From: Bryobacterales bacterium
GTDB lineage: Bacteria > Acidobacteriota > Terriglobia > Bryobacterales > Bryobacteraceae
NCBI GenBank assembly: GCA_963794265.1
Contig: CAWCDJ010000007.1
Coordinates: 478,846 to 542,845, forward strand
Length of the DNA: 64,000 nucleotides
Reading direction: 5' to 3'
A program made the position numbers and the translations under genes. Below, one piece after another: positions 9,816-54,812 of this stretch. Positions within the stretch are counted from its first letter, which is position 1. Each line of letters opens with the position of its first letter. Under the pieces are notes generated by a model. That model saw nothing but the letters and a program-made list of their open reading frames with translations. It ran no database searches and was not told the DNA's origin.

Positions 9816-9817
9816 AT

Positions 9818-12759: not shown

Positions 12760-13262
12760 ACACCATTGAATTGATCGACCGAATCGCAGGCGCGACTGAA
12801 GTGAAGAAGCGCGCCATCACTGCGCTCTCGGTCCTGAATGAAGCCTACGCCTACCCCAAGCCCAGCTCCTTTTCGCGCGGGCTGCGCATTGACCTGGGGA
12901 GCGTCGCGATCCTGCTGATTTCCGGCACCGCCAGCATCGACGAGAACGGCAACAGCGTTCATATCGGCGACTTTCGCGCTCAGCTTCGGCGCACGTACCT
13001 GAATATCACCGGACTGTTGGCGGCGGAGGGCGCGACGTGGGCAGATGTTGTCCGGACGACGTGCTATTTGCGGGACATCGAACGCGATTACGCGGCTTTC
13101 AACGAAGAGCGTACCACGTTCTTCGCGGAGCAGGGTCTGGAGCCGCTGCCGGCGTCCACCGGCATCCAGGCGATTCTCTGCCGGCCCGAACTGCTGGTGG
13201 AAATCGAGGCGATCGCAATCCTGGTCGCGCCACATCGGGAACAGCCATGCAATGGCAACTGA
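12756..13262 (+). CDS. RidA/YjgF family protein
   Basis: ATG 12756 overlaps the upstream TGA. YjgF-like core (LLISGTASIDENGNSVHIGDFRAQLRRTYLNITGLLAAEGATWADVVRTTCYLRD ... LVEIEAIA). Confidence 0.8.
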   Translation: MNTIELIDRIAGATEVKKRAITALSVLNEAYAYPKPSSFSRGLRIDLGSVAILLISGTASIDENGNSVHIGDFRAQLRRTYLNITGLLAAEGATWADVVRTTCYLRDIERDYAAFNEERTTFFAEQGLEPLPASTGIQAILCRPELLVEIEAIAILVAPHREQPCNGN

Positions 13263-38066: not shown

Positions 38067-38843
38067 TCACAGCTTGAACAGTTCCCGCAGCCGTCTGGTC
38101 TGCACCCGGCTTACGGGGACTTCGGTGTGCTTCCGATCGTCCATCCGCAGTTGGTAGCTCGACTTGAACCACGGCACCACTTCCTTGATCCGGTTGATGT
38201 TCACCAGGTAGGAGCGGTGCACCCGCCAGAACAGGTCGCGGTCCAGGCTGGCCTGCAGGTCCTCGATTGTGCGATAGGTGGAATGGCCTTCGAGGCTGGT
38301 CGTGACCAGCGTGATCAGTCCGTCGTCGATTGTGGCGTAGATTACGTCCGCGGCATCAACGATGAAATGGCGGTTGTTCGCGCGCACCAGCAGTTTGTTC
38401 CGCGGTGCTTGCGGCGCCCCCTTCGGCGTCTCGGGCGTTTCCGGGCTCTTCTTTTCCTGGATCACCCGCCGCGCCCGCTCAATGGTCTCCGCCAGCCGTC
38501 CCTTTTCCACGGGCTTCAGCAGGTAATCCATCGCCTCCAGGCGAAAAGCCTCCACCGCATATTGGTCGTAAGCCGTAACGAATATGAAGTGCGGTAGGTC
38601 GACTTCCATTTCCCGCAGCCGCCGGACCACCCCCAAGCCATCCAGCCCAGGCATGTGTACGTCCAAAAACACTAGCTCCGGTTCCATCTTCCCGATCAGG
38701 TCCACGGCCTGTAAACCATTGGAACCCGTAGCAATTACATCGATTTCCGGGAAATCCTTAAGGAGGTAGGAAAGTTCGTCGCAAGCCAGCTGTTCATCGT
38801 CAACGACAACAGTAGTTAATGTGGCCGTCGCACGGTCGCGCAT
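38067..38843 (-). CDS. LytR/AlgR family response regulator (receiver + LytTR DNA-binding domain)
   Basis: ATG 38843. Receiver domain VVVDDEQLACDELSYLLKDF..LVFLDVHMPGLDG..FIFVTAYDQYAVEAF. LytTR domain FIVDAADVIYATIDDG..FWRVHRSYLVNINRIKEV. The 704-aa ORF in the track is this gene plus an upstream antisense shadow of the inositol-phosphate synthase gene. Confidence 0.9.
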   Translation of the reverse strand: MRDRATATLTTVVVDDEQLACDELSYLLKDFPEIDVIATGSNGLQAVDLIGKMEPELVFLDVHMPGLDGLGVVRRLREMEVDLPHFIFVTAYDQYAVEAFRLEAMDYLLKPVEKGRLAETIERARRVIQEKKSPETPETPKGAPQAPRNKLLVRANNRHFIVDAADVIYATIDDGLITLVTTSLEGHSTYRTIEDLQASLDRDLFWRVHRSYLVNINRIKEVVPWFKSSYQLRMDDRKHTEVPVSRVQTRRLRELFKL

Positions 38844-38879: not shown

Positions 38880-40205
38880 ATGATTTTGCCCAATCCAGAC
38901 AGCGTCCAAATTGCGCCCGCCGAGGGAAAACTGGGGGTTTTGATCCCAGGAATGGGGGCCGTGACGACGACGTTCATCGCGGGCCTCGAAGCTATGAAGC
39001 GGGGCTTGGGGAAACCCATCGGCTCCCTCACCCAACTGGGAACTGTCCGATTGGGTAAGCGTACCGAGGGGCGTAGCCCGGCGATCCGCGATTTCGTGCC
39101 TCTTGCCAGCCCGGCAGATCTTGAGATCGGCTGCTGGGATATCTTCGAAGACAACGCTTACGAGGCTGCCGTAAAGGCCGGCGTGCTCGAAACGGCGCTG
39201 CTCCAGCAACTGAAGGAGCCGCTCTCGGCTGTCCAGCCGATGAAGGCCGTGTTCGACCAGAATTTCGTCAAGCGCCTCAATGGTCCCAACGTCAAGACCG
39301 GCGGGTCCAAGATGGACTATGCCGAAATGGTGATGGACGATATCCGCCAGTTCCAGAAACGCACCGGGGTGGCCCGTATGGCCATGATCTGGTGCGGTTC
39401 GACGGAGGTCTACCACGAGCCCGCCGCGGTGCACGCCACCCTCAAAGATTTCGAATGCGGCCTGCAAAAGAGCGACCCGGAAATTTCCGCCAGCCAGATT
39501 TACGCCTATGCCGCGATCAAGCTGGGCATTCCCCACGCCAATGGCGCCCCGCACCTGACGACGGATATGCCGGCCCTGCTCGAACTGGCGCGCGACCATA
39601 ATGTTCCGATCGCAGGCAAGGATTATAAGAGCGGCCAGACATTCATGAAGACGCTGCTCGCGCCCGGTCTCAAATCGCGCCTGCTGGGGCTGAACGGCTG
39701 GTTCTCCACCAACATCCTGGGCAACCGCGACGGCGAAGTTCTGGACGAGCCCGGCTCGTTCCGCTCCAAAGAAGTCAGCAAATCTTCCGCGCTCGAATAC
39801 ATCCTTCAGAAGGACCTCTATCCCGATTTGTACAAGGAGTTCTATCACAAGGTCCGGATCGAGTATTATCCGCCGCGCGGCGACGCCAAAGAGGGATGGG
39901 ACAACATCGATATTTTCGGGTGGCTGGGCTACCCGATGCAGATCAAAATTAACTTCCTGTGCCGGGATTCGATTCTGGCGGCTCCTCTGGTGCTCGACCT
40001 GATTCTGTTCATGGACCTTGCCCAGCGTGCCGGAATGCGCGGCGTGCAGGAATGGCTGTCGTTCTACTTCAAGGCGCCCATGCACGCTCCCGAAGTCTAT
40101 CCGGAGCACGACGTTTTCATCCAGCTCATGAAATTGAAGAACACCCTGCGCTGGATGCGCGGCGAGGACCTCATTACGCATCTCGGCCTGGAATATTACG
40201 ATTAG
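38880..40205 (+). CDS. ino1: inositol-3-phosphate synthase (myo-inositol-1-phosphate synthase)
   Basis: ATG 38880 follows AAGAGGAGA. N-terminal GVLIPGMGAVTTTFIAG. Long blocks typical of the ~430-aa bacterial enzyme (GWFSTNILGNRDGEVLDEPGSFRSKEVSK, YHKVRIEYYPPRGDAKEGWDNIDIFGWLGYPMQIKINFLCRDSILAAPLVLDL). Confidence 0.93.
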   Translation: MILPNPDSVQIAPAEGKLGVLIPGMGAVTTTFIAGLEAMKRGLGKPIGSLTQLGTVRLGKRTEGRSPAIRDFVPLASPADLEIGCWDIFEDNAYEAAVKAGVLETALLQQLKEPLSAVQPMKAVFDQNFVKRLNGPNVKTGGSKMDYAEMVMDDIRQFQKRTGVARMAMIWCGSTEVYHEPAAVHATLKDFECGLQKSDPEISASQIYAYAAIKLGIPHANGAPHLTTDMPALLELARDHNVPIAGKDYKSGQTFMKTLLAPGLKSRLLGLNGWFSTNILGNRDGEVLDEPGSFRSKEVSKSSALEYILQKDLYPDLYKEFYHKVRIEYYPPRGDAKEGWDNIDIFGWLGYPMQIKINFLCRDSILAAPLVLDLILFMDLAQRAGMRGVQEWLSFYFKAPMHAPEVYPEHDVFIQLMKLKNTLRWMRGEDLITHLGLEYYD

Positions 40206-40270: not shown

Positions 40271-41269
40271 ATGAAAGTACTGGTAATCGGGGGGACCCAG
40301 TTCATTGGCCGCCACCTGGTGGAAACGCTAGTGAAGGGCGGTCACGAGCTCTCGATCCTGCACCGCAAGCCGAAGCACGATTTCGGACGGCGGGTCGAGA
40401 ACATCATGGCCGACCGCAACGATGCGGAATCCCTGCGCGAGGCGCTCATCACGCGCCGTTTTGAAATCGTTTTTGACAACGTCTACGACTTCGAGCGCGG
40501 CACCACTGCCGAACAGGTCGAAGCGACCATCCGAGCCTGCGGCGATCGCATCAGCCGCTATATCTTCATGTCCAGCGTGGCCGCCTATGGCGACGGATTG
40601 AACCACAAAGAGAGCGACCCGCTGGCGCCCGACTACCACCCCAACCCCTACACACGCCACAAGGCCACCACCGAGCGCATGCTGTTTCGCATGCACGCCC
40701 AGAGAGGACTTCCGGTGGTGACCTTCCGGCCGCCCTTCGTATACGGGCCACGCAGCAACTATTACCGCGAGCAGTTCTTCTGGGACCGCCTGCGGGCCGG
40801 CCGGCCGATCATCATTCCCGGCGACGGCCACCGCCTCATGCAGTTCGTCTACGTGCACGACCTGGTGCACGCCATGGTCCGCTCGATGGAGGAGCCGCGC
40901 GCCACCGGCGAAGCCTTCAACATCGGCGACCCGAAGCCCGTCACCCAGGCCGAGCTGGTGGAAAAACTGGGCCGCGCAGCCAATATCGACCCTGTGCTGG
41001 CGCGGATCCCGCGGGATGTGATCGCACAGGCCGGCGGCAACGCGATGGAAGAACCCTTCTACTTCGGCGAATACTACGACCTTCCACCCATCACCGAGAA
41101 CATCGGCAAAGTGACGCGTGTCCTGAAGATGAAGCTTACGCCCTTCGAGACGGGGTTGAAAGACACTTACAAGTGGTATCTCCGCAACCAGAAGCCGCGC
41201 ACCTCGACCTTCGAGTTCGACGATAGGCTGCTGGCGATGGTGCGAACCGGGTCGCCGGCCAGCGTGTAA
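40271..41269 (+). CDS. NAD-dependent epimerase/dehydratase family (extended SDR) protein
   Basis: ATG follows TAGGAG. N-terminal Rossmann motif MKVLVIGGTQFIGRHLV. YxxxK-type centre (YTRHKATTE). Confidence 0.85.
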   Translation: MKVLVIGGTQFIGRHLVETLVKGGHELSILHRKPKHDFGRRVENIMADRNDAESLREALITRRFEIVFDNVYDFERGTTAEQVEATIRACGDRISRYIFMSSVAAYGDGLNHKESDPLAPDYHPNPYTRHKATTERMLFRMHAQRGLPVVTFRPPFVYGPRSNYYREQFFWDRLRAGRPIIIPGDGHRLMQFVYVHDLVHAMVRSMEEPRATGEAFNIGDPKPVTQAELVEKLGRAANIDPVLARIPRDVIAQAGGNAMEEPFYFGEYYDLPPITENIGKVTRVLKMKLTPFETGLKDTYKWYLRNQKPRTSTFEFDDRLLAMVRTGSPASV

Positions 41270-41920: not shown

Positions 41921-42892
41921 ATGCCTGTTAAGCCTTTCGCACCCAATCACGGCGAGGAAAAAAAGATCTTTCTATTGAAGCCGCGGGGCTTCTGCGCCGG
42001 TGTCGTCAGGGCTATCGATGTGGTTAAGATCGCTCTCGACCTCTACGGTCCGCCCGTCTATGTACGCAAGGAGATCGTCCACAACATGCACGTGGTCGAT
42101 GAATTGCGCGAAGCCGGTGCCATTTTCGTCGAAGAACTCGATGAGGTGCCGGAGGGCGCCCGTGCCATTTTCAGCGCCCACGGTGTGGCGCCGGCGGTGC
42201 GGCGGCAGGCGAAAGACCGGCGTCTGGAGGTGATCGACGCCACCTGCCCGCTGGTCACCAAGGTCCATCTCGAAGCGGTCCGTTTTGCGCGCGAGGGCTT
42301 CAGCATCGTGCTCATCGGCCACAAAGACCACGACGAAGTCATCGGCACGCTCGGCGAAGTCACCGCATGCAGCTATCTGGTGGAGACGGTCGATGACGTC
42401 GATCGGCTCACGGTGCCGGATGCTGCGCGCGTCCGCTACCTTACCCAAACCACCCTCAGCCTGGATGAAACCCGGGATATCGTCGGACGGCTGAAGGAAC
42501 GCTTTCCCCTGGTGCAGGGTCCGCCCGCGCAGGATATCTGCTACGCCACGGAGAACCGGCAGATGGCCGTCAAAGCCGTCTCGCAGGCGGTCGACCTGCT
42601 CCTGGTCGTCGGCTCCCAGAACAGCTCCAACTCCAAGCGCCTGGTCGAAGTGGGCGATAACTTCGGCGTCCGTTCGTTTCTGGTCAATGACCGCGGCGCC
42701 GTGGACCCCATCTGGCTGGAGAATGTAAAAAACGTCGCGGTTACTGCAGGCGCCTCGGCTCCGGAACACCTGGTGCAGGAACTCATCGAGTTCCTTCGTG
42801 GTCTCGGATACCGTCAGATGGAAGAGATCGAACTTGTGGATGAAGACGTGCGGTTCTCACTGCCGTCGGAGTTGATGATTTCGATTCGATGA
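41921..42892 (+). CDS. ispH: 4-hydroxy-3-methylbut-2-enyl diphosphate reductase
   Basis: IspH/LytB blocks: PRGFCAGVVRAIDVV, VYVRKEIVHNMHVV, SAHGV, ATCPLVTKVH, GHKDHDEV, TQTTLS, ICYATENRQ, VVGSQNSSNSKRL. The stop overlaps the shc start. Confidence 0.95.
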   Translation: MPVKPFAPNHGEEKKIFLLKPRGFCAGVVRAIDVVKIALDLYGPPVYVRKEIVHNMHVVDELREAGAIFVEELDEVPEGARAIFSAHGVAPAVRRQAKDRRLEVIDATCPLVTKVHLEAVRFAREGFSIVLIGHKDHDEVIGTLGEVTACSYLVETVDDVDRLTVPDAARVRYLTQTTLSLDETRDIVGRLKERFPLVQGPPAQDICYATENRQMAVKAVSQAVDLLLVVGSQNSSNSKRLVEVGDNFGVRSFLVNDRGAVDPIWLENVKNVAVTAGASAPEHLVQELIEFLRGLGYRQMEEIELVDEDVRFSLPSELMISIR

Positions 42893-44814
42893 GTGCCTCC
42901 GTACAGATCGGCAATGCCCTCGAATCCGAGGCGGGGCAGGCGATGCGCCGCGCCGCCTCATACCTCGCCTCCCGGCAGGCTTCCGACGGCCACTGGTGCG
43001 CCGAGCTGACTGCCGATACGACCCTCGAAGCCGATTACATCCTGTTTCAGCTCTGGCTCCATCCGCCGGTCGACGGCAACTGGCAGCCCGCCACCCGGTC
43101 GCTGATCGACAAGGCGGTGCGCTCGATTCTCGACCGGCAACTTTCCGACGGCGGCTTTAACATCTATGTCCGGGGACCGTCGGAAGTCAGCGCCTCGATC
43201 AAAGCCTACGTGGCGTTGAAACTGGCCGGCCTCCCGGTCGAAGATCCGCGCATGGCGCTCCTGCGCTCCCGTATTCTGGAACTGGGAGGAATACAGGCCG
43301 CCAACAGCTACGTCAAGGTCAACCTCAGCCTCTTCGACCTCTACCCGCGGCAATATTGCCCGAGCATCCCGCCGGAGGTCGTGCTGCTGCCCTGGAATTT
43401 TCTATACCAGATGTCGTCGTGGACGCGAGCCATCGTGGTCTCGCTGTCGATCGTCCACAGCGTCAACCCGCGCAAGCCGGTGCCGGCCGGATTCACGCTC
43501 GACGAACTCTGGCTTCCCGGCGTCAGCCCGGCGTTCCACAGGGACCGGCGGACCTTCACCTGGCACAACTTTTTCCTCGCCACGGACCGGCTGCTCAAAT
43601 GGTGGGAGCGTTGCGGCTCGCGCGTGCTGCGCCGCAAGGCCTTTGCCCGCGCCAAAGAGTGGATGGTCGAGCGGCTCCAGCACTCCGATGGTCTGGGCGC
43701 CATCTATCCGCCGATGATGTATTCGGTGATGGCGCTCGATTCGCTCGGCGTCGCCCCCGGCGACCCGCTGCGCGTCGAGGCCCTCAAGCAGTTCGATAAC
43801 CTGATGGTAGACGACGGCGAGCGCTTCTTCTTCCAGCCCTGCTTCTCGCCCGTCTGGGACACCGCGATCGGCGCGTACGCCCTGGCCGAGAGCGACCCGC
43901 GGCACCGGGCGCTCGGCGGCGCAGCGGATTGGCTGCTGGCGCGCGAGGTGCGGCGAAAGGGCGACTGGTCCGTCAAGCGTCCTTCAATCGAGCCCTCCGG
44001 CTGGGCCTTCGAGTATCGCAACGAGTTCTACCCCGATATCGACGATACGGCGATGGCGGTGCTCGCGCTGAGCGAAGCGCGCGGTTCCGACGCCGCGGCG
44101 CAGGGAGCGTGCCAAAAGCGCGCTCTCGCCTGGCTGCTGGCCATGCAATCGAGTGATGGCGGATGGGCCGCCTTCGACGCCGATAACAATTGGAATTTCC
44201 TCAGCAATGTGCCGTTCGCCGACCACAACGCCATGCTCGACCCCACCTGCCCGGATATCACCGGCCGTGTGCTCGAAGCATTGGCCGCGCAGGGGCTCGA
44301 CCGCAACCACCAGGCGGTCCAGCGCGGCGTCGAATGGCTCGTTCGCAATCAGCAGCCGGACGGCAGTTGGTACGGCCGCTGGGGCGTGGCTTACATTTAT
44401 GGCACGTGTTTCGCGCTGCGCGGCCTGGCCGCTTCCGGCGAAGACGACCGCGAAGCTCACGTGCTGCGTGCCGGAGAGTGGCTGCGCTCCATTCAGAACG
44501 CCGACGGCGGCTGGGGTGAAAGCTGCGCCAGCTACGATCGTGGAATCTTCACCGGAGGGCCCAGTACGCCCTCGCAAACGGCTTGGGCGATCCTCGGCCT
44601 CATCGCCGGGGGCGACGCCAACAGCCTCAGCGTGCAACACGGAATCGATTACCTGCTCGAAACCCAACGCCCCGACGGCAGTTGGGAGGAAGAGTTGGCC
44701 ACCGGGACCGGCTTTCCCAGGGTTTTCTATCTCAACTACCACTTGTACAAGGACTACTTCCCCCTACTCGCGCTTTCTTCGTTCGTGAAGGCCGGCGCGA
44801 ACTCGAACGGATAG
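42889..44814 (+). CDS. shc: squalene-hopene cyclase
   Basis: DxDDTA catalytic motif (YPDIDDTAMAV). Multiple QW repeats (QQPDGSWYGRWG, QNADGGWGE, QRPDGSWEE). ATG 42889 overlaps the ispH TGA (ATGA). Confidence 0.95.
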   Translation: MSASVQIGNALESEAGQAMRRAASYLASRQASDGHWCAELTADTTLEADYILFQLWLHPPVDGNWQPATRSLIDKAVRSILDRQLSDGGFNIYVRGPSEVSASIKAYVALKLAGLPVEDPRMALLRSRILELGGIQAANSYVKVNLSLFDLYPRQYCPSIPPEVVLLPWNFLYQMSSWTRAIVVSLSIVHSVNPRKPVPAGFTLDELWLPGVSPAFHRDRRTFTWHNFFLATDRLLKWWERCGSRVLRRKAFARAKEWMVERLQHSDGLGAIYPPMMYSVMALDSLGVAPGDPLRVEALKQFDNLMVDDGERFFFQPCFSPVWDTAIGAYALAESDPRHRALGGAADWLLAREVRRKGDWSVKRPSIEPSGWAFEYRNEFYPDIDDTAMAVLALSEARGSDAAAQGACQKRALAWLLAMQSSDGGWAAFDADNNWNFLSNVPFADHNAMLDPTCPDITGRVLEALAAQGLDRNHQAVQRGVEWLVRNQQPDGSWYGRWGVAYIYGTCFALRGLAASGEDDREAHVLRAGEWLRSIQNADGGWGESCASYDRGIFTGGPSTPSQTAWAILGLIAGGDANSLSVQHGIDYLLETQRPDGSWEEELATGTGFPRVFYLNYHLYKDYFPLLALSSFVKAGANSNG

Positions 44815-44817
44815 CCT

Positions 44818-45924
44818 ATGAAATTCCCTATCGCGATGACTGCCGGCCTGGCCGGATACATCTTCAAGAACAAAATGCGGCCCCGTCCGGAGTGGCAGAA
44901 GAACGCCGCCCCGGCCGCGGACACTGCCAACCCCTTCCGCATCCTGCCTCCAAAAACCGGCGAGAAGCGGCAGCCTCATCCGATGATCAACAAGCGGTTC
45001 CCCATCGTCCTGATGCTCGAGCCGCTGCACGCCTGCAATCTCACCTGCACCGGCTGCGGCCGGATCCGCGAGTACGAATCCACCATCACCGAGCGCGTGC
45101 CGCTCGAAGAGTGCCTGGCGGCGGTGGATGAGTGCGGCGCGCCCATCGTCTCCATCTGCGGCGGAGAGCCGATGATGTACCCGCAGATCGGCGAGCTGAC
45201 CGCCGGAATCCTCGAGCGCAACCGCCACATCTACCTCTGCACCAACGGCATGTTCATCAAGAAGCGCCTGCGTGAGTTTAAGCCCGACCCGCGCTTCTAC
45301 TTCAACGTGCACCTCGACGGCATGGAGAAGAACCACGACATCGCCGTGGAGAAGGAAGGCGTGTTCCAGGCCGCGGTCGAAGGAATCCGCCTCGCCAAGG
45401 CCGCCGGCTTCCAGGTCTGCACCAACACAACCGTCTACAAAGAGACCGACATGCGCGAAATCGAGGAGCTCTTCGAGTTCCTCAAGCAGTTCCACGTGGA
45501 CGGCCACCAGATCGCGCCCGCCTACGGCTACTCGGCCGTGGACGATCGTGAGATCTTCATGACCCGCGAAGACATCCACGAGAAGTTCAAGGATATCGAC
45601 CGCCTCGCGAAGAAGTACGCCATCCGCCAGACGCCGGTCTACCTGGATTTCCTCAAGGGCGAGCGGGAACTTCCCTGCACAGCCTGGGGCAACCCGACCT
45701 ACAACATCAAGGGCTGGAAAGGCCCGTGCTACCTGATCACCGACGGGCACTACAAAGCGTTTGAGGACCTCATGACCCAAACGCCCTGGGAAAGCTACGG
45801 CAAGGGCAACGACCCGCGCTGCGAGCATTGCATGGTGCATTGCGGTTTCGAGCCCTCCGCCGCCCTGGGCATCAACGTCGGCCTGGCCGACAACCTGAAG
45901 ATGCTGGCATGGACGCTGCGCTAG
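44818..45924 (+). CDS. hpnH: adenosyl-hopene transferase (radical SAM)
   Basis: Begins 3 nt after the shc stop. Radical SAM motif LHACNLTCTGCGRIREY. HpnH-like length and C-terminal Cys cluster (CEHCMVHCG). Confidence 0.9.
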   Translation: MKFPIAMTAGLAGYIFKNKMRPRPEWQKNAAPAADTANPFRILPPKTGEKRQPHPMINKRFPIVLMLEPLHACNLTCTGCGRIREYESTITERVPLEECLAAVDECGAPIVSICGGEPMMYPQIGELTAGILERNRHIYLCTNGMFIKKRLREFKPDPRFYFNVHLDGMEKNHDIAVEKEGVFQAAVEGIRLAKAAGFQVCTNTTVYKETDMREIEELFEFLKQFHVDGHQIAPAYGYSAVDDREIFMTREDIHEKFKDIDRLAKKYAIRQTPVYLDFLKGERELPCTAWGNPTYNIKGWKGPCYLITDGHYKAFEDLMTQTPWESYGKGNDPRCEHCMVHCGFEPSAALGINVGLADNLKMLAWTLR

Positions 45925-46027: not shown

Positions 46028-47020
46028 ATGAAACCCGTCCTGGTCACCGGCGCCTCCGGCTTTCTCGGTTGGCACGTGGCGCGCGCCCTGGTCGAGCGCG
46101 GCTACTCCGTGCGGGCGCTGGTGCGCCCCGGCAGCCGCGTGGAAGAGTTGCCCGTCGAGCGGGCTACGGGCGACCTCCGCGACCTCTCTTCGCTCGAACG
46201 CGCCGCCGCCGGCTGCGGCCTGCTGTTCCACGTGGCCGCCGATTACCGGCTCTGGTCGAAGGACCCCGGTCAACTCTACCGCTCGAATGTCGAAGGCACC
46301 CGCAATCTGCTCGAGGCCGCCCGCGGCGCCGGAATCGAGCGCATGGTCTACACCAGCACGGTAGGCTGCATCGGCATCCCGCACGGCGGACTGGGTGACG
46401 AGACCACCCCCGTGACGCTTGCCGATATGGCCGGCGACTACAAGCGCTCGAAGTTTCTGGCCGAGCAGGTCGTTCTGGAATTCGCCCGGGGCGGCTTCCC
46501 CGTGGTCATCGTCAACCCCACCGCTCCCATCGGCGACCACGACGTCAAGCCCACCCCCACCGGCAAGATCGTGCTCGACTTCCTGAATGGCGACATGCCC
46601 GCCTTCATCGACACCGGGCTGAACGTGGTGGACGTGCGCGACACCGCCGAAGGACACCTGCTGGCATGTGAGCGCGGCAGGGCGGGGGAGCGATACATTC
46701 TCGGATCGGAGAACCTTACCCTGGAACAGATTCTCGGCCGGCTGGCTGAAATTACCGGCCGCAAACCGCCGCGCCTGAAGCTGCCCTACGCCGTCGCCTG
46801 GTGCGCCGGGGCCTGCAGTACAGCCTGGGCCGGATTCACGGGCACGCCGCCGCGCGTGCCTATGGAAGGCGTCCGCATGGCGCGAAAGAAGATGTGGGTG
46901 ACGCACGAAAAGGCGCGCCGCGAACTCGGCTTTGAACCCGGGCCCGCGCGCACCGCGCTGGCTCGTGCCGTCCAATGGTTTCAGGGGCGCGGCAGCCTGG
47001 CTCGCGTCCCCGCCGCTTGA
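46028..47020 (+). CDS. hpnA: hopanoid-associated sugar epimerase-like SDR
   Basis: MKPVLVTGASGFLGWHVARAL Rossmann motif, YKRSK catalytic pair, and a position between hpnH and hpnG. Confidence 0.8.
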   Translation: MKPVLVTGASGFLGWHVARALVERGYSVRALVRPGSRVEELPVERATGDLRDLSSLERAAAGCGLLFHVAADYRLWSKDPGQLYRSNVEGTRNLLEAARGAGIERMVYTSTVGCIGIPHGGLGDETTPVTLADMAGDYKRSKFLAEQVVLEFARGGFPVVIVNPTAPIGDHDVKPTPTGKIVLDFLNGDMPAFIDTGLNVVDVRDTAEGHLLACERGRAGERYILGSENLTLEQILGRLAEITGRKPPRLKLPYAVAWCAGACSTAWAGFTGTPPRVPMEGVRMARKKMWVTHEKARRELGFEPGPARTALARAVQWFQGRGSLARVPAA

Positions 47021-47716
47021 ATGAGGCTCTTATTCGTGGCTTCCGACCCCATGGAGTTTCGCGGAATTCTCTCGCGCGCCAATGACGTGCACCCCCTGCC
47101 TCTGGGCATCGATTGGGCGCGCGCCGGGACGCTCGGAACTCATGAGGCCGTTTTCGCCGCCAACGGGGTAGGACGCAAGCGGGCCGCCGCCGCGGTGGAT
47201 GCTCCGCTCTCCCGGTGGCGTCCCGATATGATTGTGAGCACTGGATTTTGCGGCGCTCTGGAGGAAAGCCTGAAGGTCGCCGAAATCGTGGTGGGCACGG
47301 AAGTGGTGGCGTCCGAAGGTTGCTGGCCGGCCGTGCCGGTATCGTCCGCAGTACCCTTCCGAACGGGAGTGGTGGCCTCGGTGGACCGTGTAGCGCGTAC
47401 GGTCGCCCAAAAGCGGGAGTTGCGCCGCTCCGGCGCCGCGGTCGTCGAGATGGAAGCCGCCGGGGTCGCCGAGCGCGCCGAATTCCTCCGCATCCCGTTC
47501 CAATGTGTACGCGTTGTCACCGATCTCGCTGACGAAATTATGGCGAATGACTTCGATAGCGCACTGCGCCCCGACGGGCACTTCGCTACAATGCATATTT
47601 TACTGGGAGCCCTGCGCCAGCCAACTGTCCGGTTCCCGGAATTGCTGCGGCTTAGACGCCGCTCGATCCGGGCCGCCCGGGGTTTGGGGGATTTCATTGC
47701 CGACTGCCAATTCTAG
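47021..47716 (+). CDS. hpnG: hopanoid-associated phosphorylase/nucleosidase (adenosylhopane nucleosidase)
   Basis: Abuts the hpnA stop. PNP_UDP_1/MTA-nucleosidase-like blocks (STGFCGAL, VVEMEAAGVA, VRVVTDLAD). Confidence 0.8.
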   Translation: MRLLFVASDPMEFRGILSRANDVHPLPLGIDWARAGTLGTHEAVFAANGVGRKRAAAAVDAPLSRWRPDMIVSTGFCGALEESLKVAEIVVGTEVVASEGCWPAVPVSSAVPFRTGVVASVDRVARTVAQKRELRRSGAAVVEMEAAGVAERAEFLRIPFQCVRVVTDLADEIMANDFDSALRPDGHFATMHILLGALRQPTVRFPELLRLRRRSIRAARGLGDFIADCQF

Positions 47717-47738: not shown

Positions 47739-48794
47739 ATGCGCGCTGCCGTCTATCGCGGCCAAAGCATTGTGACTGTCGAAGAGGTCCCCACCCCCGT
47801 GATTCTTCCTGGGGAGCTTCTGATTCGCGTGGAAGCCTGCGGGATCTGCCACACCGACCTGAAGAAGATCGAGCACAATCTGCTCGCCCCGCCGCGCATC
47901 TACGGCCACGAGACCGCCGGGGTGGTGGTCGCGGCCGGACAGGGTGTTTCTCGGTTCCGTCCCGGAGATCGCGTGCTGGCGTTTCATCACATCCCCTGCC
48001 AGAACTGTTTTTACTGCAGCCGGAAGCTGTACGCCCAGTGTCCCGTGTACAAGACGGTCGGAATCACCGCCGGGTTTGAACCCGCGGGCGGAGGTTTTGC
48101 TCAGTACGTACGGGTGATGCCCTGGATCGTCGAGCGTGGGGTCGAGAAGATTCCCGATGGCATCTCCTACGATCGAGCCACCCTGGTGGAGCCGCTGAAC
48201 ACCTGCCTTAAAGCGGTGGTGCAGTGCGACCCGCAGCCGGAAGACGTGTTGGTCGTCATGGGCCAGGGTCCTATCGGCCTCATGTTCACGATGCTGGCGC
48301 GGCGTACGGGCGCGCGGGTCGCCGCCACCGATACGATCGCCGAGCGGCGCGCGCTTTCCGCCCGCTGCGGCGCCGAATTCAGCTGGGATCCCCGTGCCGT
48401 CGACGTGCCTGCCGAAGTGAAGCGGCTGACCGGGGGCCGCGGCGCCGATCTCGTGATCGTGGCGGTTTCCGCCCCGGGAATCGTCGGGCAGGCCCTCGCC
48501 TGCTCCCGCCCGGGCGCCCGCATACTCCTCTTCGCCCAGACCTCCGCCGCCGAAAGAATCGAGACCACCGGGGCCGATCTGGTTGCCGGCGAACGCACCC
48601 TGTTCGGGTGCTATAGCGCTTCAGTGGATCTTCAGGCCGAATCCGCGCGTCTTGCCTTTAGCGGGGAGTTGCCTGTGGAAGAATTGATTTCGCACCGGTT
48701 CCCTTTAGTTAAAATCCGTTCAGGTTTTGATTTGGCATTGCATCCAGGACCTAAATCGTTGAAAATAATCGTTCAGCCACAGAGGTGGTCATAG
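47739..48794 (+). CDS. zinc-dependent medium-chain alcohol/polyol dehydrogenase (MDR) 1
   Basis: ATG 47739 lies 22 nt after the hpnG stop. Catalytic Zn ligands CGICHTD and GHETAG. Structural Zn loop CQNCFYCSRKLYAQC. Rossmann motif VMGQGPIGLM. The ORF-track start 47505 overlaps hpnG. Confidence 0.85.
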   Translation: MRAAVYRGQSIVTVEEVPTPVILPGELLIRVEACGICHTDLKKIEHNLLAPPRIYGHETAGVVVAAGQGVSRFRPGDRVLAFHHIPCQNCFYCSRKLYAQCPVYKTVGITAGFEPAGGGFAQYVRVMPWIVERGVEKIPDGISYDRATLVEPLNTCLKAVVQCDPQPEDVLVVMGQGPIGLMFTMLARRTGARVAATDTIAERRALSARCGAEFSWDPRAVDVPAEVKRLTGGRGADLVIVAVSAPGIVGQALACSRPGARILLFAQTSAAERIETTGADLVAGERTLFGCYSASVDLQAESARLAFSGELPVEELISHRFPLVKIRSGFDLALHPGPKSLKIIVQPQRWS

Positions 48795-49834
48795 TGAACA
48801 ACCACATGATGGCTGCCGTGCTTTACGGCAAGGAACACTTGCAGGTTGAGCCGGTAGCAGTTCCTGAAATTGAAACTGGAGACATCCTCGTACGAGTGAA
48901 AGTGGCGCTGACCTGCGGCACCGACGTGAAGGTGTTCCGCAGAGGGTATCATGCTCGGATGATCGTACCCCCAGCTGTGTTCGGGCACGAACTGGCCGGC
49001 GATGTTGTCGCGGTAGGCGAGGATGTTGCGAGGTTTTCGGTGGGACAACGGGTGGTGGCAGCCAACTCCGCGCCCTGCGGATCGTGCTTCTTTTGTGCCC
49101 GCAACCTCGAAAACCTCTGCGAGGATCTCCTGTTCAACAACGGAGCCTACGCCGAATACATCCGGATTCCCGCCCGCATCGTCGAGCGCAACACCTACCT
49201 GATTCCGCCCCAGGTCGGCTATCACGATGCCGCACTGGTGGAGCCCCTCGCCTGCGTGGTGCGCGGCTTTGAGGAGACCGCTCCCAGGCCGGACGACAAC
49301 ATCGCGATCATCGGCCTCGGTCCCATTGGCCTGATGTTCGTGAAGCTAGCCAAACTGCGGGGCTGTCGCGTCATCGCGGTCGGCCGCCGCCGGACGCAAC
49401 TGGAACGAGCCGCCATGCTGGGCGCCGATGAATTGATCGTCGCCCGTGACGAATCGGACCCGGTTAAGGCCGTTCGCGACCTCACCCACGGCCGCGGGGT
49501 GGATGTCGCTATCGAGGCTGTCGGCAAGCCCGAAACCTGGGAATGGGCCGCCAACATGGTCCGCCGCGGCGGCACGGTCAATTTCTTCGGGGGCTGCCCG
49601 AACGACAGCGCGGTGCGCCTCGATACGTCGCTGCTGCACTATTCCGAGATCACCTGCAAGGCCAGCTTTCACCATACGCCGGCCTACATCCGGAAGGCGC
49701 TGGACCTGGTCTCGGCGGGGCACATCACCGCCGGCTTCTTCGTGAATCGCGAGGAGCCCCTGGCCAATCTTCTGGAAGTGATGCGCCACCTGATGAGCCA
49801 CAACGGGCATCTCAAAACGGCTATCGTTCCGTAG
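48785..49834 (+). CDS. zinc-dependent medium-chain alcohol/polyol dehydrogenase (MDR) 2
   Basis: GTG 48785 overlaps the upstream stop by 10 nt (alternative ATG 48806). CGTD and GHELAG catalytic Zn motifs. Structural Zn loop CGSCFFCARNLENLC. Rossmann motif IIGLGPIGLM. Confidence 0.85.
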   Translation: MVIVNNHMMAAVLYGKEHLQVEPVAVPEIETGDILVRVKVALTCGTDVKVFRRGYHARMIVPPAVFGHELAGDVVAVGEDVARFSVGQRVVAANSAPCGSCFFCARNLENLCEDLLFNNGAYAEYIRIPARIVERNTYLIPPQVGYHDAALVEPLACVVRGFEETAPRPDDNIAIIGLGPIGLMFVKLAKLRGCRVIAVGRRRTQLERAAMLGADELIVARDESDPVKAVRDLTHGRGVDVAIEAVGKPETWEWAANMVRRGGTVNFFGGCPNDSAVRLDTSLLHYSEITCKASFHHTPAYIRKALDLVSAGHITAGFFVNREEPLANLLEVMRHLMSHNGHLKTAIVP

Positions 49835-49868
49835 CTTCCGGGCCGGTCCGCCGGCCCTTTTGCCCCAC

Positions 49869-50783
49869 ATGCCGCTCGCCCCCGCCGAGTTCGTTCGTTC
49901 CATCCAGGCTCTTCGAAAGCCGTATTCTCTCGAAGAAGCCCAGGCCTATACGCGCTGGCTGGCCACGCACCACTACGAGAATTTCCACGTGGTGAGCTTC
50001 CTGCTGCCCAAGCGCCTGCACCAGGATTTCTACAACGTCTACTCCTACTGCCGGTGGGCCGACGATCTCGGCGACGAGATCGGCGATAAAGCTGAAAGCC
50101 TGCGCCTTCTCGAGTGGTGGGGCCGCGAACTCGATGCCATGTACGAGGGCCGCGCCACGCACCCTGTCTTCGTGGCGCTTCTCCCCACCGTGCGGAAATA
50201 CGAAATTCCCCGCCGGCCGTTCGCCGACCTCGTCGCCGCGTTCGTGCAGGATCAGCAGGTTAGCCGCTACCGCGACTGGGACGAGCTTTTCGGCTATTGC
50301 CGCTGCTCGGCCAACCCCGTGGGGCGCCTGGTGCTCTACCTCTGCGGCTATTCGGACGACGCCCGCCAGAGCCTCTCCGACTCCACCTGCACCGCCCTGC
50401 AACTCGCCAACTTCTGGCAGGACGTCACGGTCGACCTGCTCAAGGACCGCATCTACATTCCACTCGAAATCATGGAGCGGCACGGTTACACTGTGGAAGA
50501 GTTGTTCTCACACCGTTTCACGCCCGCCTTCCGCGAGGTCATGCGGGAAATCGTGACCAAGGCGCGGGAACTGTTCCTCAAGGGGCTGCCTCTCGCGGCC
50601 ATGGTGGATCGCCGTCTCGCGCTCGATATCGACCTCTTCAGCCGCGGCGGCATGCGCGTGCTCGAAAAAATCGAGCGCCAGGGCTACGACGTGCTGGCCG
50701 CCCGCCCGGCCATCTCCAAAGCCGAACGCGTCAGCCTGCTGTTCTCATCGCTGGTGCGGGTGGCGCTCCGGCGGGCGGCGTGA
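49869..50783 (+). CDS. hpnC: hydroxysqualene synthase (squalene synthase HpnC)
   Basis: ATG 49869 (TTG 49860 in the ORF track). Squalene/phytoene synthase fold with YENFHVVSFLLPKRLHQDFYNVYSYCRWADDLGDE and FWQDVTVD. Confidence 0.9.
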   Translation: MPLAPAEFVRSIQALRKPYSLEEAQAYTRWLATHHYENFHVVSFLLPKRLHQDFYNVYSYCRWADDLGDEIGDKAESLRLLEWWGRELDAMYEGRATHPVFVALLPTVRKYEIPRRPFADLVAAFVQDQQVSRYRDWDELFGYCRCSANPVGRLVLYLCGYSDDARQSLSDSTCTALQLANFWQDVTVDLLKDRIYIPLEIMERHGYTVEELFSHRFTPAFREVMREIVTKARELFLKGLPLAAMVDRRLALDIDLFSRGGMRVLEKIERQGYDVLAARPAISKAERVSLLFSSLVRVALRRAA

Positions 50784-51619
50784 TGGTCTCGATCGAGCAA
50801 TCCTACGATTACTGCCGGCGGGTCGCCCGGAGCCGCGCCCGGAACTTCTACTACTCGTTTCTGCTGCTCTCCCGGCAGCAGCGCAAGGCCATGTGCGCCA
50901 TATACGCCTTCATGCGCTACTGCGACGACCTCAGCGACGACCCGGGTGCTTCGCGCGCCGCGATCGACCGCTGGAGCGCCGAAATGGAGGAGGCACTCGA
51001 AGGCCGTTTCAGCGATCATCCGGTGTGGCCGGCTTTCCACCACACCGTGCGCCGCTTCGGCATCCCCCACCAGTATTTTCGCGAAATGATCGCGGGCGTC
51101 GCCTCCGACCTCGAACCGCGCCAGATGCAGACCTTCGACGAGCTCTACCACTACTGCTACCAGGTGGCTTCAGTCGTCGGCCTGACCATCATCCATATTT
51201 TCGGATTCGATACGCCCAGCGCGCTGCCGCTGGCCGAGAAGTGCGGCGTGGCGTTTCAACTGACCAATATCCTGCGCGATATTGGGGAAGACGCCGAGCG
51301 CTGCCGCATTTACCTTCCGGCCGAGGATCTGGAGCGCTTCGGGGTCAGCCCCGGCGATCTGCAGCAGGGCCTCCGCACCGACCGCGTGCTCGGCCTCCTG
51401 AAGTTCGAAGCCGGCCGCGCCCGCCAGTATTACGATGAATCGCAGCCGCTGCTCGACCTGATCCATCCGCGCAGCCGCCCCTCGCTGTGGGCGCTGATTT
51501 CGATCTATTCCGCGCTTCTCGACCGGATCGTCGGCGTGGATTACGACGTTTTTACGCGCCGCGTCCGCCTGTCACCGCTCGCAAAATCGTGGATCGTCGT
51601 GCGCGCCCTGGTGGGCTGA
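50783..51619 (+). CDS. hpnD: presqualene diphosphate synthase
   Basis: ATG 50783 overlaps the hpnC TGA by 1 nt. SYDYCRRVARSRARNFYYSFLLL, AIYAFMRYCDDLSDD and LTNILRDIGEDA motifs. The ORF-track start 50297 is an out-of-context extension inside hpnC. Confidence 0.9.
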   Translation: MVSIEQSYDYCRRVARSRARNFYYSFLLLSRQQRKAMCAIYAFMRYCDDLSDDPGASRAAIDRWSAEMEEALEGRFSDHPVWPAFHHTVRRFGIPHQYFREMIAGVASDLEPRQMQTFDELYHYCYQVASVVGLTIIHIFGFDTPSALPLAEKCGVAFQLTNILRDIGEDAERCRIYLPAEDLERFGVSPGDLQQGLRTDRVLGLLKFEAGRARQYYDESQPLLDLIHPRSRPSLWALISIYSALLDRIVGVDYDVFTRRVRLSPLAKSWIVVRALVG

Positions 51620-52140: not shown

Positions 52141-52614
52141 TTACATCGGCTCGTGGCAGAAATTGCAGTCGATGCTCACCTTCTTCGCCTGGTGGCATTT
52201 CATGCAGCCCCCCATCGTGATGTCGCCCTCTCGCGACAACTGGTCCTCCCCGGCCACATTTCCGTGGCATTCCTCGCACGTGTTTCCAGCCGCCAGGTGT
52301 TTGCGGTGGCTGAAATCCACGTAGGACGGAATCTGGTAAACCCTCGCCCAGGGGAGCGGGCGCGATTCCTTCGCGAACTGCGCCAGTTTCCGGATCGCCG
52401 GACTGCCGGCCTTGATGGCCGAATGGCACTGCATGCAGGTCGAAGCCGGCACGATGGTCATGCTCTCGCCGGGGTCCGGATTCGGATGGCACATTTTGCA
52501 TTCGAGCTTCATGGTTCCCGCGTGCTGCTTATGACTGAACGGGATCGGCTGCTCCGGGGCATCCGCCGCCCACAGGCAGCAGGCCAGGGAGACCACCAGC
52601 AGCAGCGGCTTCAC
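52141..52614 (-). CDS. pentahaem c-type cytochrome (cytochrome c3 family-like), secreted
   Basis: GTG 52614 overlaps the GMC gene TGA (GTGA). Signal [17 protein letters not shown]. Five CxxCH motifs (CKMCH, CMQCH, CEECH, CMKCH, CNFCH) occur in 157 aa, plus FSHKQH/FSHRKH distal-His-like pairs. The 408-aa track ORF is this gene plus an out-of-frame overlap of the GMC gene. Confidence 0.85.
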
Positions 52615-54173
52615 AGGTTCCCCGCGCGCATCTGCCCAGCCAGGTATTCGGAAGCCCGCAAGGAAAGCGACAGAATCGTCATGGTCGGATTCTGCGAGCC
52701 GCCGGTCACGAAACTGCTGCCGTCCACTACGAACAGGTTCCGGATGTCGTGGCTCTGGTTCCAGCGGTTGAGGACGCTGGTCTTCGGGTCTTCGCCCATG
52801 CGGCAGGTTCCCAGTTCGTGGATGCTGTAGCCCGGCGGAAACATCTTGTCGTTCTTGTTCAGTACTTCCCAGCCCGTGCCGCGGCACACCTCGGCCAGGG
52901 TGTCGACGGCGTCTCTGGCCATGTGGAATTCGTTGTCGCCGTACTTGTACTGGAAGTTCAGCACCGGGATGCCCCACGCGTCCTTCACGTCTTTGTCGAT
53001 GCTCACCCGGTTTTCGTAGCGCGGCAGCACTTCGCCCATCGCGGTCGCGGAGAATGCCGCGCCGCGTGCGTTCGCGATCTGCCTTTCCAATTCCTCGCCC
53101 CACGCCCCGAAATACTTCGGGTCCGGCGTTCCTCCAATGTTGAAATCGAAAGCGTACCCGCGGAGGAAATCGCGCTTCTCGCCTTTGGCCAGGTTGCGGA
53201 ACCTCGGAATGTAGCCGCCCCCGCGCACGCCCCTTCCGCCGCGCGCTTCGGGTACGATCGCCAGCACGCTGCTCGAAATGTAGAACTGGTCGTGCAGATA
53301 GCGACCCAGCACGCCGCTCGAATTGGCGATGCCGGAATTGAGCAGAATGCGCGTGCTCTCCAGGCACGAAGCGCCGAGCACCACTGCCTTGGCCTTCACG
53401 TGCAGTTCGCGCCCCGAGAGCTTGTCGTGATAGTGAGCCCCGTTGACGCGGCCGGTATCCCTCTCGACGGTGATTTCGCGGACCACCGCGTTAGGCACCA
53501 GCGTCAGCTTGCCGCTGGCCACGGCGTCCGGTAGCAGCAGGTTGAGCGAACTCGCGAGCGGCCCGTTCCCGGTGGCGCGGCGCATCTTGGTCACCGTCAT
53601 GCCCGCGCTTTTGGCGGACGCGGCGAACTTCTTCACGATCTCGCTGTCCGGTGAATCGTCCTCGATGAAGTTGCCGTCCGGCAATTGCGGCAGGCCCTCT
53701 TTGCGCCCCACCACGCGGAAGACGGGCTCCACCCTGGAATAAAACGGCGCAAGGTCGGCATAGCTGATCGGCCAATTCTCGCCGAAACCGTCGTGGTCCC
53801 TGGCCTTGAACTCATAGTCGCTCAGCCGGAAAGACATGCGCGCCCAGAAGTTCGACTTGCCGCCGATCATCCGCACCCGTACCCAATTGAAGGGTTCCCC
53901 GGGGCTATGGGTGTAGGGCACCTGGGTTTCGTCGACCCACTGGTTCGCATTGAACTCGTTGGCCTGGAGAACGTGCGGCAGGCGCCCCGGCTTGCCGAAG
54001 CCGCGGTAGGGCAGGTCGTAGACCGCGCGCATGACGCGGTCCTTCTGGAAATCCACCTGCGGCCCGGCATCCAGCAGCACGCAGTCAACGCCCATCTTCG
54101 TCAGTGTGTTGGCGGCCATCCCTCCGGACGCGCCGGAGCCGATGATGAGAACGTCGTACACTTTGGCAGCCAT
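52611..54173 (-). CDS. GMC family FAD-dependent oxidoreductase (large flavoprotein subunit)
   Basis: N-terminal [22 protein letters not shown] motif and a C-terminal GMC block ([37 protein letters not shown]). Confidence 0.9.
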
Positions 54174-54194
54174 AATTTTCCCTTCTAGCGTTCT

Positions 54195-54812
54195 CTACTC
54201 GAAAGGCAGCCAGTAGAACCCGCGAGCGCCGAAGCGCCGCCCGCCGCCGGCAGCTGCGCCGGCCTGGTTGTACTCCCGGGAGTTCACGGTCGCGGTGTAG
54301 ACGTCGTGCTTGGCTTCGCGCAGAAAGTGCGCCAGTGGATCGGCGGGCGCTTCGTAGGTCCACGGCTCCCGCAGCGGCGCCAGAATCGTCGCCGCGTCGG
54401 AATCGCCGGCTTCCGAAAATGGACGGCTGGAGCGCTTCATCGCCGCCGCATTCAACGCGTCCAGGCCGCCGCGATAGAGCTGCTGGCGGTCCGCGGGCGA
54501 AACGGAGATCAGGAAATCGAGAAACTCCGGCACCTTGGCATCCAACGCTCCCGGCGTGCCGTTCAGGGACGGCTGAAGAAGGTCGCTGAGCTTTCGCAGC
54601 GCGGAATATTGCCCGGCTGTGAAGAATTGCGGGATCGGGTCCCCCGCGAGATCGACAGCCGCGGTCTGGAGCTGCGGAATTTCCATGGATCCGCCGGGCA
54701 TTCCGGCGGACCGCCCGGACGGATTCCGGGGAGCTGCGGGCGGCTGCTGCGCCAGGAGTGCGCCGGCGGCAGGAGCGGCAGCCAGGGATTGAAAAAAGCG
54801 CCTGCGTTTCAT
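54195..54812 (-). CDS. gluconate 2-dehydrogenase subunit 3-like small subunit with Tat signal
   Basis: MKRRRFFQSLAAAPAAGALLAQ twin-arginine signal. ~200-aa protein directly upstream of a GMC flavoprotein, which is the usual pairing of this family. Confidence 0.75.
   Translation of the reverse strand: MKRRRFFQSLAAAPAAGALLAQQPPAAPRNPSGRSAGMPGGSMEIPQLQTAAVDLAGDPIPQFFTAGQYSALRKLSDLLQPSLNGTPGALDAKVPEFLDFLISVSPADRQQLYRGGLDALNAAAMKRSSRPFSEAGDSDAATILAPLREPWTYEAPADPLAHFLREAKHDVYTATVNSREYNQAGAAAGGGRRFGARGFYWLPFE

Follow-up and report, generated by a model that had tools for sequence, protein, structure and literature searches.

Three hopanoid gene clusters of Acidobacteria have been described by Sinninghe Damsté et al. 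(2017; Front Microbiol 8:968, PMC5462960), among them hpnA-hpnG-ug1 and ug2-hpnC-hpnD-hpnE. Table S1 of that paper lists ug1 as a "Zn-dependent alcohol dehydrogenase (ca. 370 aa)" and ug2 as a "Zn-binding alcohol dehydrogenase (ca. 350 aa)", with the function given as "not established". Both genes were reported from subdivision 1 and 3 Acidobacteria, with ug2 in all genomes of these subdivisions and not in Chloracidobacterium, and it was hpnA, not ug1 or ug2, that was proposed for the conversion of ribosylhopane to bacteriohopanetetrol (BHT). Here we analyze a stretch of 64,000 nucleotides (nt), hereafter the window, from a Bryobacterales bacterium (contig CAWCDJ010000007.1, positions 478,846 to 542,845), in which the same two genes stand side by side within an operon of hopanoid (hpn) genes. 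They encode two zinc-dependent dehydrogenases of the medium-chain dehydrogenase/reductase (MDR) superfamily, MDR1 (ug1; 47739-48794, plus strand) and MDR2 (ug2; 48794-49834, plus strand); we refer to the corresponding subfamilies as A and B.

The co-location of these dehydrogenases with hpn genes has thus been in print since 2017, and it is the functional proposal for ug1 and ug2 that is new. Also new are the pairing of the two subfamilies (ug1 and ug2 were treated in 2017 as separate accessory genes of two clusters, whereas here they form an A-B tandem), the NAD/NADP split between them, their hpnC-hpnD linkage across several phylum-level lineages, the occurrence of unlinked copies, and the finding that the order hpnA-hpnG-A-B-hpnC-hpnD holds in ~80 Bryobacterales species loci. 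These dehydrogenases are not mentioned in a 2020 paper on HpnCDE evolution, a 2025-26 hopanoid survey or a 2025 alphaproteobacterial study. We suggest that the pair is a two-step or heteromeric redox module linked to squalene/hopanoid metabolism, and we lean toward this reading while putting its chances slightly short of even. Taken more broadly, so as to include the ribosylhopane and hydroxysqualene variants considered below, an association of the pair with this pathway is probable.

Both proteins are predicted to combine a GroES-like N-terminal domain with a C-terminal Rossmann domain, as expected of zinc-dependent MDR enzymes: PF08240 (ADH_N) matches MDR1 and MDR2 with 91 and 86 bits and PF00107 (ADH_zinc_N) with 71 and 97 bits, all above gathering scores. 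The predicted zinc residues are C37, H57, E58 and E151 in MDR1 (351 amino acids [aa], ATG start), whose catalytic Cys lies in a CHTD motif, and the Cys of CGTD, a GHE motif and the Glu of VEPL in MDR2. The Cys4 lobe (C-x2-C-x2-C-x7-C) is the same in both, and both keep the GxGPIG Rossmann motif. No predicted zinc-site residue falls below 95% conservation across 86 (MDR1) and 79 (MDR2) orthologues, and some are invariant. A preliminary description of this DNA had reported two intact genes with catalytic and structural zinc motifs and a Rossmann fold inside an hpn operon; Pfam and motif checks agree with it, and the distances it quoted (22 nt after hpnG, an overlap or 11 nt between the two genes, and 25-34 nt before hpnC) are all correct.

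MDR1 and MDR2 share 36% identity over 284 aa (E = 2e-48) and fall into separate clades in a neighbor-joining tree with ~70 other MDR representatives; they therefore represent two distinct MDR subfamilies and not a recent duplication. The A subfamily is marked by C-x-TD-x-KK, by SYSxS and by an insert, TAGFEPAGGG, that follows the zinc lobe, and the B subfamily by the invariant motifs CGTDxKVFRRGYHARM, NSAPCG, NLCEDLLF and SFHHTP. A polar or anionic substrate may be indicated by the basic motifs beside the catalytic Cys, which are TDxKK in A and KVFRRGYHARM in B. Where strand beta-2 ends, A carries an acidic residue in 10/10 lineages, which is the NAD type (D198 in MDR1); B carries Gly or a basic residue there, the NADP type, in 8/10 lineages (GRRR in MDR2), while the pocket is NAD-type in the other 2/10. 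By this predictor, the cofactor pocket of A is NAD-type and that of B usually NADP-type.

The closest described enzymes belong to the polyol-threonine branch of the superfamily (Tdh, sorbitol dehydrogenase, IolM, GatD), which has in common with MDR1 and MDR2 the two-domain architecture, the zinc ligands (Cys, His and two Glu), the Cys4 lobe and the Rossmann motif. Unlike Tdh, IolM and GatD, each of the two proteins carries its own subfamily motifs around the active site and belongs to no characterized equivalog. The IolM model (NF041097) gives 152 and 167 bits for MDR1 and MDR2 against a cut-off of 450, and the L-threonine 3-dehydrogenase models (TIGR00692/NF003808) give 148 and 159 bits against a cut-off of 458, and 144 and 150 bits against a cut-off of 380. 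Judged by these scores, which are below every curated equivalog cut-off, neither protein is a bona fide Tdh or IolM, and no inositol-catabolism genes were seen among the neighbors of the pair. The best match of both in the PDB is 4cpd, a general Thermus alcohol dehydrogenase (E = 1e-36 to 1e-40); the matches to human and sheep sorbitol dehydrogenases (E = 1e-22 to 1e-23) are weaker than those to generic alcohol and threonine dehydrogenases, and the JGI name for the orthologues, "L-iditol 2-dehydrogenase", is an automatic label.

A few copies are degenerate. At one locus (L099, 1986-4090) the A protein lacks the Cys4 zinc lobe and the B protein the catalytic Cys (ALIGGTVRK), and another A-type protein (P0126) also lacks the catalytic Cys; these copies may be pseudo-enzyme subunits. 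Gene fusions gave no clue to a partner: P0148, a fusion of a sugar nucleotidyltransferase with an MDR, lies outside the orthogroup and is uninformative, and P0145 is a contig fragment joining the C terminus of HpnG to MDR1, not an informative fusion.

The pairing of A and B extends well beyond the order of the window. We ran a profile search against 1.8 billion representatives, examining the contexts of the most distant full-length relatives, and scanned metagenomes with a degenerate DNA pattern made to exclude the Bryobacterales "CGIC" motif. A and B are adjacent, with A first, in 10 lineages whose A proteins are 36-50% identical to one another and whose G+C content ranges from 39 to 72%. The stop codon of A overlaps the start of B by 4 nt in five of the loci (L087, L094, L098, L099 and L220). 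In the metagenome sample, B follows A in 28/33 loci with enough downstream sequence, and the exceptions form a separate A-like cluster that is never paired. Gene order and overlaps indicate that A-B is a module, an obligate A-then-B tandem whose genes are, as it appears, usually translationally coupled. We also considered mirror-tree co-evolution of A and B as evidence for a complex, and the correlation (r = 0.38, 36 lineage pairs) falls short of what an argument for a physical one would need.

Within Bryobacterales the arrangement is nearly fixed. Scanning one genome per GTDB species gave 80 loci, every one of them from this order, with MDR1 65-88% identical; tblastn with the window proteins recovered the order hpnA-hpnG-MDR1-MDR2-hpnC-hpnD in essentially all of them where the contig reaches, and in one related species the gene calls and Pfam content are the same as at the window locus. 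Because this order recurs in 80 species-representative loci, linkage of the pair to hpn genes far beyond chance is confirmed. Over these loci, a set selected on MDR1, the median identities are 70% for MDR1, 74% for MDR2, 72% for IspH, 72% for HpnH, 69% for HpnA, 65% for Shc, 67% for HpnC, 62% for HpnD and 41% for HpnG. Purifying selection on MDR1 and MDR2 is as strong as on the core pathway enzymes, because their medians match those of IspH and HpnH and exceed those of Shc and HpnG. Three further features of these loci were recorded. The gene of the operon that evolves fastest, by a wide margin, is hpnG (41%, with the others at 62-74%); hpnD is never followed by hpnE in Bryobacterales (0/72), whereas it always is in Terriglobales-like loci (11/11); and roughly one in three Bryobacterales loci has no hpnH between shc and hpnA.

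To quantify linkage across lineages, all A genes were clustered at 70% identity, and only informative clusters were counted. Genes for HpnC and HpnD follow B in 7/12 clusters: Bryobacterales (79/79 loci), Terriglobales-like (19/19), L106-like (4/4), L096, L098, L164 and L187. The gene for HpnG precedes A in 3/13 clusters: Bryobacterales (85/85), Terriglobales-like (27/40) and L106-like (4/8); in the Terriglobales-like loci lacking it, a divergent recN-like gene precedes the pair. An A-B-hpnC-hpnD operon also contains hpnE in Terriglobales-like (11/11) and L106-like (3/3) loci and in L096, L164 and L187. Across lineages, hpnC-hpnD(-hpnE) is thus a more faithful partner of the pair than hpnG. 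Acidobacteriota carry the pair as part of their squalene/hopanoid genes, within the unit A-B-hpnC-hpnD(-hpnE), and in Bryobacterales and many Terriglobales-like genomes hpnA-hpnG stands directly upstream of this unit.

The same A-B-hpnC-hpnD unit occurs in an Armatimonadota metagenome-assembled genome (MAG) and in a low-GC, Chlamydiota-like lineage. In the former (L096) the order is aldolase-A-B-(89 aa)-HpnC-HpnD-HpnE. HpnC and HpnE exceed their NCBIfam cut-offs, and HpnD is the best match at 237 bits, under its cut-off of 279; no hpnG, hpnH or shc was found within 10 kb. The aldolase, encoded at 8946-9977, 23 nt upstream of the pair, is of the pyridoxal phosphate-dependent LtaE/GntG type (threonine aldolase type, 394 bits). 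The latter (L098; 39% G+C; nearest named relative a Chlamydiota MAG) carries A-B-hpnC-hpnD as a compact operon preceded by a divergent nadA, with 4-nt stop/start overlaps both at A/B and at B/hpnC and no hpnG in view.

Dehydrogenases of NAD type and NADP type encoded together are usually a sign of an oxidize-then-reduce isomerization or epimerization, or of an aldose-polyol-ketose sequence. Couples of this kind are xylose reductase and xylitol dehydrogenase, and, in the formation of scyllo-inositol, IolG and IolW; A and B may be likened to them in how they would work, and not in any shared substrate. We propose that A and B would act jointly, forming a heteromer or catalyzing two steps in succession, at a single hydroxyl/carbonyl position in a hydroxylated intermediate between squalene and bacteriohopanepolyol (BHP), with A oxidizing with NAD+ and B reducing with NADPH. 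Candidate substrates would be the polyol or aldose side chain present after HpnG (ribosylhopane or BHT) or the product of HpnC, hydroxysqualene, an allylic alcohol.

Several observations weigh against such a module. At least five lineages (L091/L138/L205, L094, L097, L099 and L220) carry the pair without any hpn gene in view; among them L097 is marine with Planctomycetota relatives and L220 comes from groundwater. A-like genes also occur singly, in many cyanobacteria, where they are conserved, and in a soil cluster of 31 members. The gap between B and hpnC measures 0.2-1.5 kb in Terriglobales-like loci, so that co-transcription is not assured there, and the locus counts are not phylogenetically independent, since most loci come from Acidobacteriota. 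The putative oxidize-then-reduce logic derives solely from motifs of the cofactor pocket. Neither MDR1 nor MDR2 has a predicted membrane segment, and the nearest characterized relatives act mostly on small hydrophilic substrates (threonine, polyols, inosose). Finally, we know of no orphan redox step in HpnCDE squalene synthesis.

The unlinked and single copies offer little orientation. The 31 single A-like genes (L107, L118, L133, L177 and 27 further loci) are 44-55% identical, never precede a B gene and never lie beside hpn genes; the contexts of this cluster, of L093 and of the cyanobacterial genes gave no functional hint. Two unlinked pairs lie by queuosine genes, queF in L087 (1130-1504, 172 bits) and queE in L091 (6015-6650, 214 bits), perhaps by coincidence. 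In L220, a Peripla_BP_2 gene (BtuF/FhuD-like, 12054-12953) overlaps the end of the B gene. Among the non-hpn loci and the upstream neighbors of pairs lacking hpnG we found no common theme (recN, adenylate kinase, hydantoinase, queE/queF, BtuF-like, GGDEF, PEP-CTERM).

The unlinked copies would allow the pair to belong to a general small-molecule pathway unrelated to triterpenoids, for instance an NAD+-dependent oxidation of L-threonine or a polyol followed by an NADPH-dependent reduction of the product, and merely to share an operon with hpn genes in some phyla. This explanation, which we consider possible but doubtful, is in keeping with the best family matches (threonine, inosose and polyol dehydrogenases), with the solubility of both proteins, with the wide occurrence of the pair outside hpn contexts (beside the BtuF-like gene, queF and queE), with the threonine aldolase neighbor in the Armatimonadota MAG and with the conservation of single A-like genes in cyanobacteria. 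It has difficulty, however, with the linkage to hpnC/D in 7/12 clusters, which spans at least three phylum-level labels, includes partly overlapping codons and is hard to obtain by chance. Moreover, both MDRs score 150-167 bits where the equivalog cut-offs are 380-458, and the non-hpn contexts suggest no pathway in common.

The preliminary description had proposed, from the adjacency to hpnG, that one or both dehydrogenases are the missing NAD(P)H-dependent ribosylhopane reductase, which would convert the open-chain C-35 aldehyde to BHT; B would be the likelier of the two. That this step has no assigned gene, as the description also said, agrees with recent papers: Geobiology 2025 still leaves it without one, Nat Prod Rep 2026 draws it as "predicted nonenzymatic", and in the literature naming ribosylhopane we found no gene assigned to the reduction. 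It is the sole known orphan redox reaction in the pathway. That the reaction can be carried out in a cell-free system is stated in the title of Bodlenner 2015, as cited in Geobiology 2025. A lies directly after hpnG in the Bryobacterales, Terriglobales-like and L106-like loci counted above, and the best PDB match is a general alcohol dehydrogenase. The cell-free reduction reportedly needs NADPH, and the B pocket is NADP-type in 8/10 lineages. A soluble polyol-type MDR would also suit a membrane-projecting, ribose-derived head group better than a C30 hydrocarbon alcohol.

The adjacency that suggested this role is real and conserved, but where synteny breaks the pair stays with hpnC/D (7/12) and not with hpnG (3/13), and A-B-hpnC-hpnD(-hpnE) persists without hpnG in the Armatimonadota MAG and the Chlamydiota-like lineage. 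Neither phylum is listed among C35-hopanoid producers in a 2026 survey, a weak argument from absence of mention. Synteny, which the description had put forward as a check, likewise gives a divided answer: hpn linkage recurs in Bryobacterales, Terriglobales-like loci and other lineages, but at least five lineages carry the pair unlinked. No further candidate gene lies near the hpn clusters of 48 Alphaproteobacteria able to make BHT (Geobiology 2025), and the pair cannot be a general reductase, because these clusters lack such a gene and Chloracidobacterium, which has BHP genes, lacks ug2. By the loci examined and by the literature, the pair does not follow hpnH/hpnG or cover the BHT producers in the way a ribosylhopane reductase would.

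HpnA (TIGR03466) is, moreover, an equally placed candidate. Like the MDR pair it is an NAD(P)-dependent oxidoreductase encoded in hpn clusters, here directly upstream of hpnG, and it has been proposed for the same reduction; it differs in belonging to the short-chain dehydrogenase/reductase (SDR) superfamily, in having no zinc, and in being far wider among hopanoid producers, since it is absent from only 6/48 hpnH-positive Alphaproteobacteria (Geobiology 2025). HpnA was itself reported as non-essential for BHT in Burkholderia and as absent from Rhodopseudomonas (PMC5462960). Nor would a single reduction account for two enzymes that are both conserved and catalytically intact and that differ in their cofactor pockets. 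This last difficulty would be eased if B reduced ribosylhopane and A acted on the same polyol, for example by setting or inverting the C-34 configuration; no literature linking the isomer BHT-34R with Acidobacteria was found, and a C-34 epimerase role is speculation. We regard this two-enzyme version as improbable, and the reductase role in its simpler form as no likelier. The proposal is legitimate and testable, but it is not favored by comparative genomics.

The pair might instead serve the squalene branch by acting on hydroxysqualene, for example by inverting or recycling its C-12 alcohol via the ketone for HpnE. Here the linkage data are at their most favorable, with hpnC-hpnD the most faithful neighbor across lineages and phyla and with the 4-nt overlaps at both A/B and B/hpnC in the Chlamydiota-like lineage; NAD-type and NADP-type enzymes would also fit a two-enzyme stereoinversion. 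Yet no such step is known or needed. Indeed, Pan et al. 2015 are said to have obtained squalene in E. coli from HpnC, HpnD and HpnE alone. The proteins are soluble and of polyol/threonine-dehydrogenase type, and their basic active-site motifs would suggest a polar or anionic substrate and not a C30 alcohol. Most bacteria with hpnCDE lack the pair, and a study of HpnCDE neighborhoods reports no such neighbor. We therefore rate this role as low in probability as a role in ribosylhopane reduction. That the pair compensates for a missing HpnE by removing the hydroxyl of hydroxysqualene, a suggestion of the preliminary description to which the lack of hpnE in the 64-kb window and after hpnD in Bryobacterales (0/72) lends some color, is contradicted and can be rejected as very improbable: pair and hpnE share an operon elsewhere (Terriglobales-like, L106-like, L096, L164 and L187), hpnE is generally present in subdivision 1 and 3 genomes and dispersed in Bryobacter (PMC5462960), and zinc MDRs, which lack the FAD amine-oxidase fold of HpnE, interconvert alcohols and carbonyls and do not remove hydroxyls.

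The operon that carries the pair in the window, whose source is a member of Bryobacteraceae (Acidobacteriota; the top matches of MDR1, 81-100% identical, come from Bryobacteraceae and Solibacteraceae MAGs), comprises nine genes, all on the plus strand and head to tail, in the order ispH-shc-hpnH-hpnA-hpnG-MDR1-MDR2-hpnC-hpnD. Intergenic gaps range from -4 to +34 nt, except for ~100 nt between hpnH and hpnA, and terminator-like and promoter-like sites across the operon show no excess over shuffled sequence. Because of these tiny or overlapping gaps and the lack of excess sites, ispH to hpnD reads as one operon. It opens with ispH (41921-42892; NCBIfam NF002189, 448 bits against a cut-off of 444), whose end overlaps by 4 nt the start of shc, for squalene-hopene cyclase (42889-44814; TIGR01507, 649 bits against 431). 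These are followed by hpnH, for the radical S-adenosylmethionine (SAM) enzyme adenosylhopane synthase (44818-45924; TIGR03470, 423 bits against 225), and by hpnA, for a hopanoid-associated extended SDR (46028-47020; TIGR03466, 473 bits against 368), whose second-best NCBIfam match is the sterol demethylase reductase SdmB (237 bits). The hpnG-like nucleosidase/phosphorylase gene (47021-47716) has TIGR03468 as best match at 148 bits, under the cut-off of 187, and PNP_UDP_1 is present in the loci orthologous to it.

MDR1 begins 22 nt past the hpnG stop (47716). For MDR2 we prefer the GTG at 48794, which gives a 1-nt overlap with MDR1 and has a Shine-Dalgarno-like GAGGTGG 5 nt before it; the alternatives are GTG 48785 (10-nt overlap) and ATG 48806 (11-nt gap). 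The gene for hydroxysqualene synthase, hpnC (49860-50783; TIGR03464, 353 bits against 250), starts at TTG 49860 or ATG 49869, that is, 25 or 34 nt after the end of MDR2. The last gene, hpnD, for presqualene diphosphate synthase (50780-51619), has TIGR03465 as best match at 258 bits, just under the cut-off of 279; its start, read from the sequence as GTG 50780 or ATG 50783, overlaps the hpnC stop codon.

The surroundings of the operon contain further genes of note. Upstream, at a distance of 4 kb, a radical SAM protein of the B12-binding type, 556 aa long (36160-37830, minus strand), matches HpnJ, HpnR, BchE and PhpK with 39-57 bits and remains an unassigned class-B radical SAM enzyme. A gene of the myo-inositol-1-phosphate synthase family (38880-40205, plus strand; PF07994, 319 bits) stands beside a LytTR response regulator (38067-38840, minus strand), 7.5 kb upstream of the MDR pair, and was not seen in L001, the one related locus with its genes listed. 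The SDR gene at 40271-41269 (plus strand; NAD-dependent epimerase type) keeps its place upstream of ispH in several Bryobacterales loci. The minus strand downstream of hpnD (52141-54812) carries genes for a multiheme cytochrome c7/c3-like protein, a GMC oxidoreductase and a gluconate 2-dehydrogenase subunit-3-like protein, which together resemble a three-subunit membrane-bound dehydrogenase.

Hopanoids rank among the major membrane lipids of bacteria and give rise to the hopane biomarkers of the geological record, and the core C35 pathway still lacks a gene for the step from ribosylhopane to BHT, as well as an explanation for the origin of BHT stereoisomers. If neither of the pathway roles discussed here is true, the dehydrogenases would be an ordinary uncharacterized pair in an operon with lipid genes. 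If the pair acts with HpnC and HpnD, it would be an unrecognized accessory to the three-enzyme bacterial squalene pathway in several phyla. If A-B is a BHT side-chain system, a gene would for the first time be assigned to a reaction left open since 2010-2015. Hopanoid clusters with such a strongly conserved dehydrogenase pair thus offer concrete candidate genes that are cheap to test.

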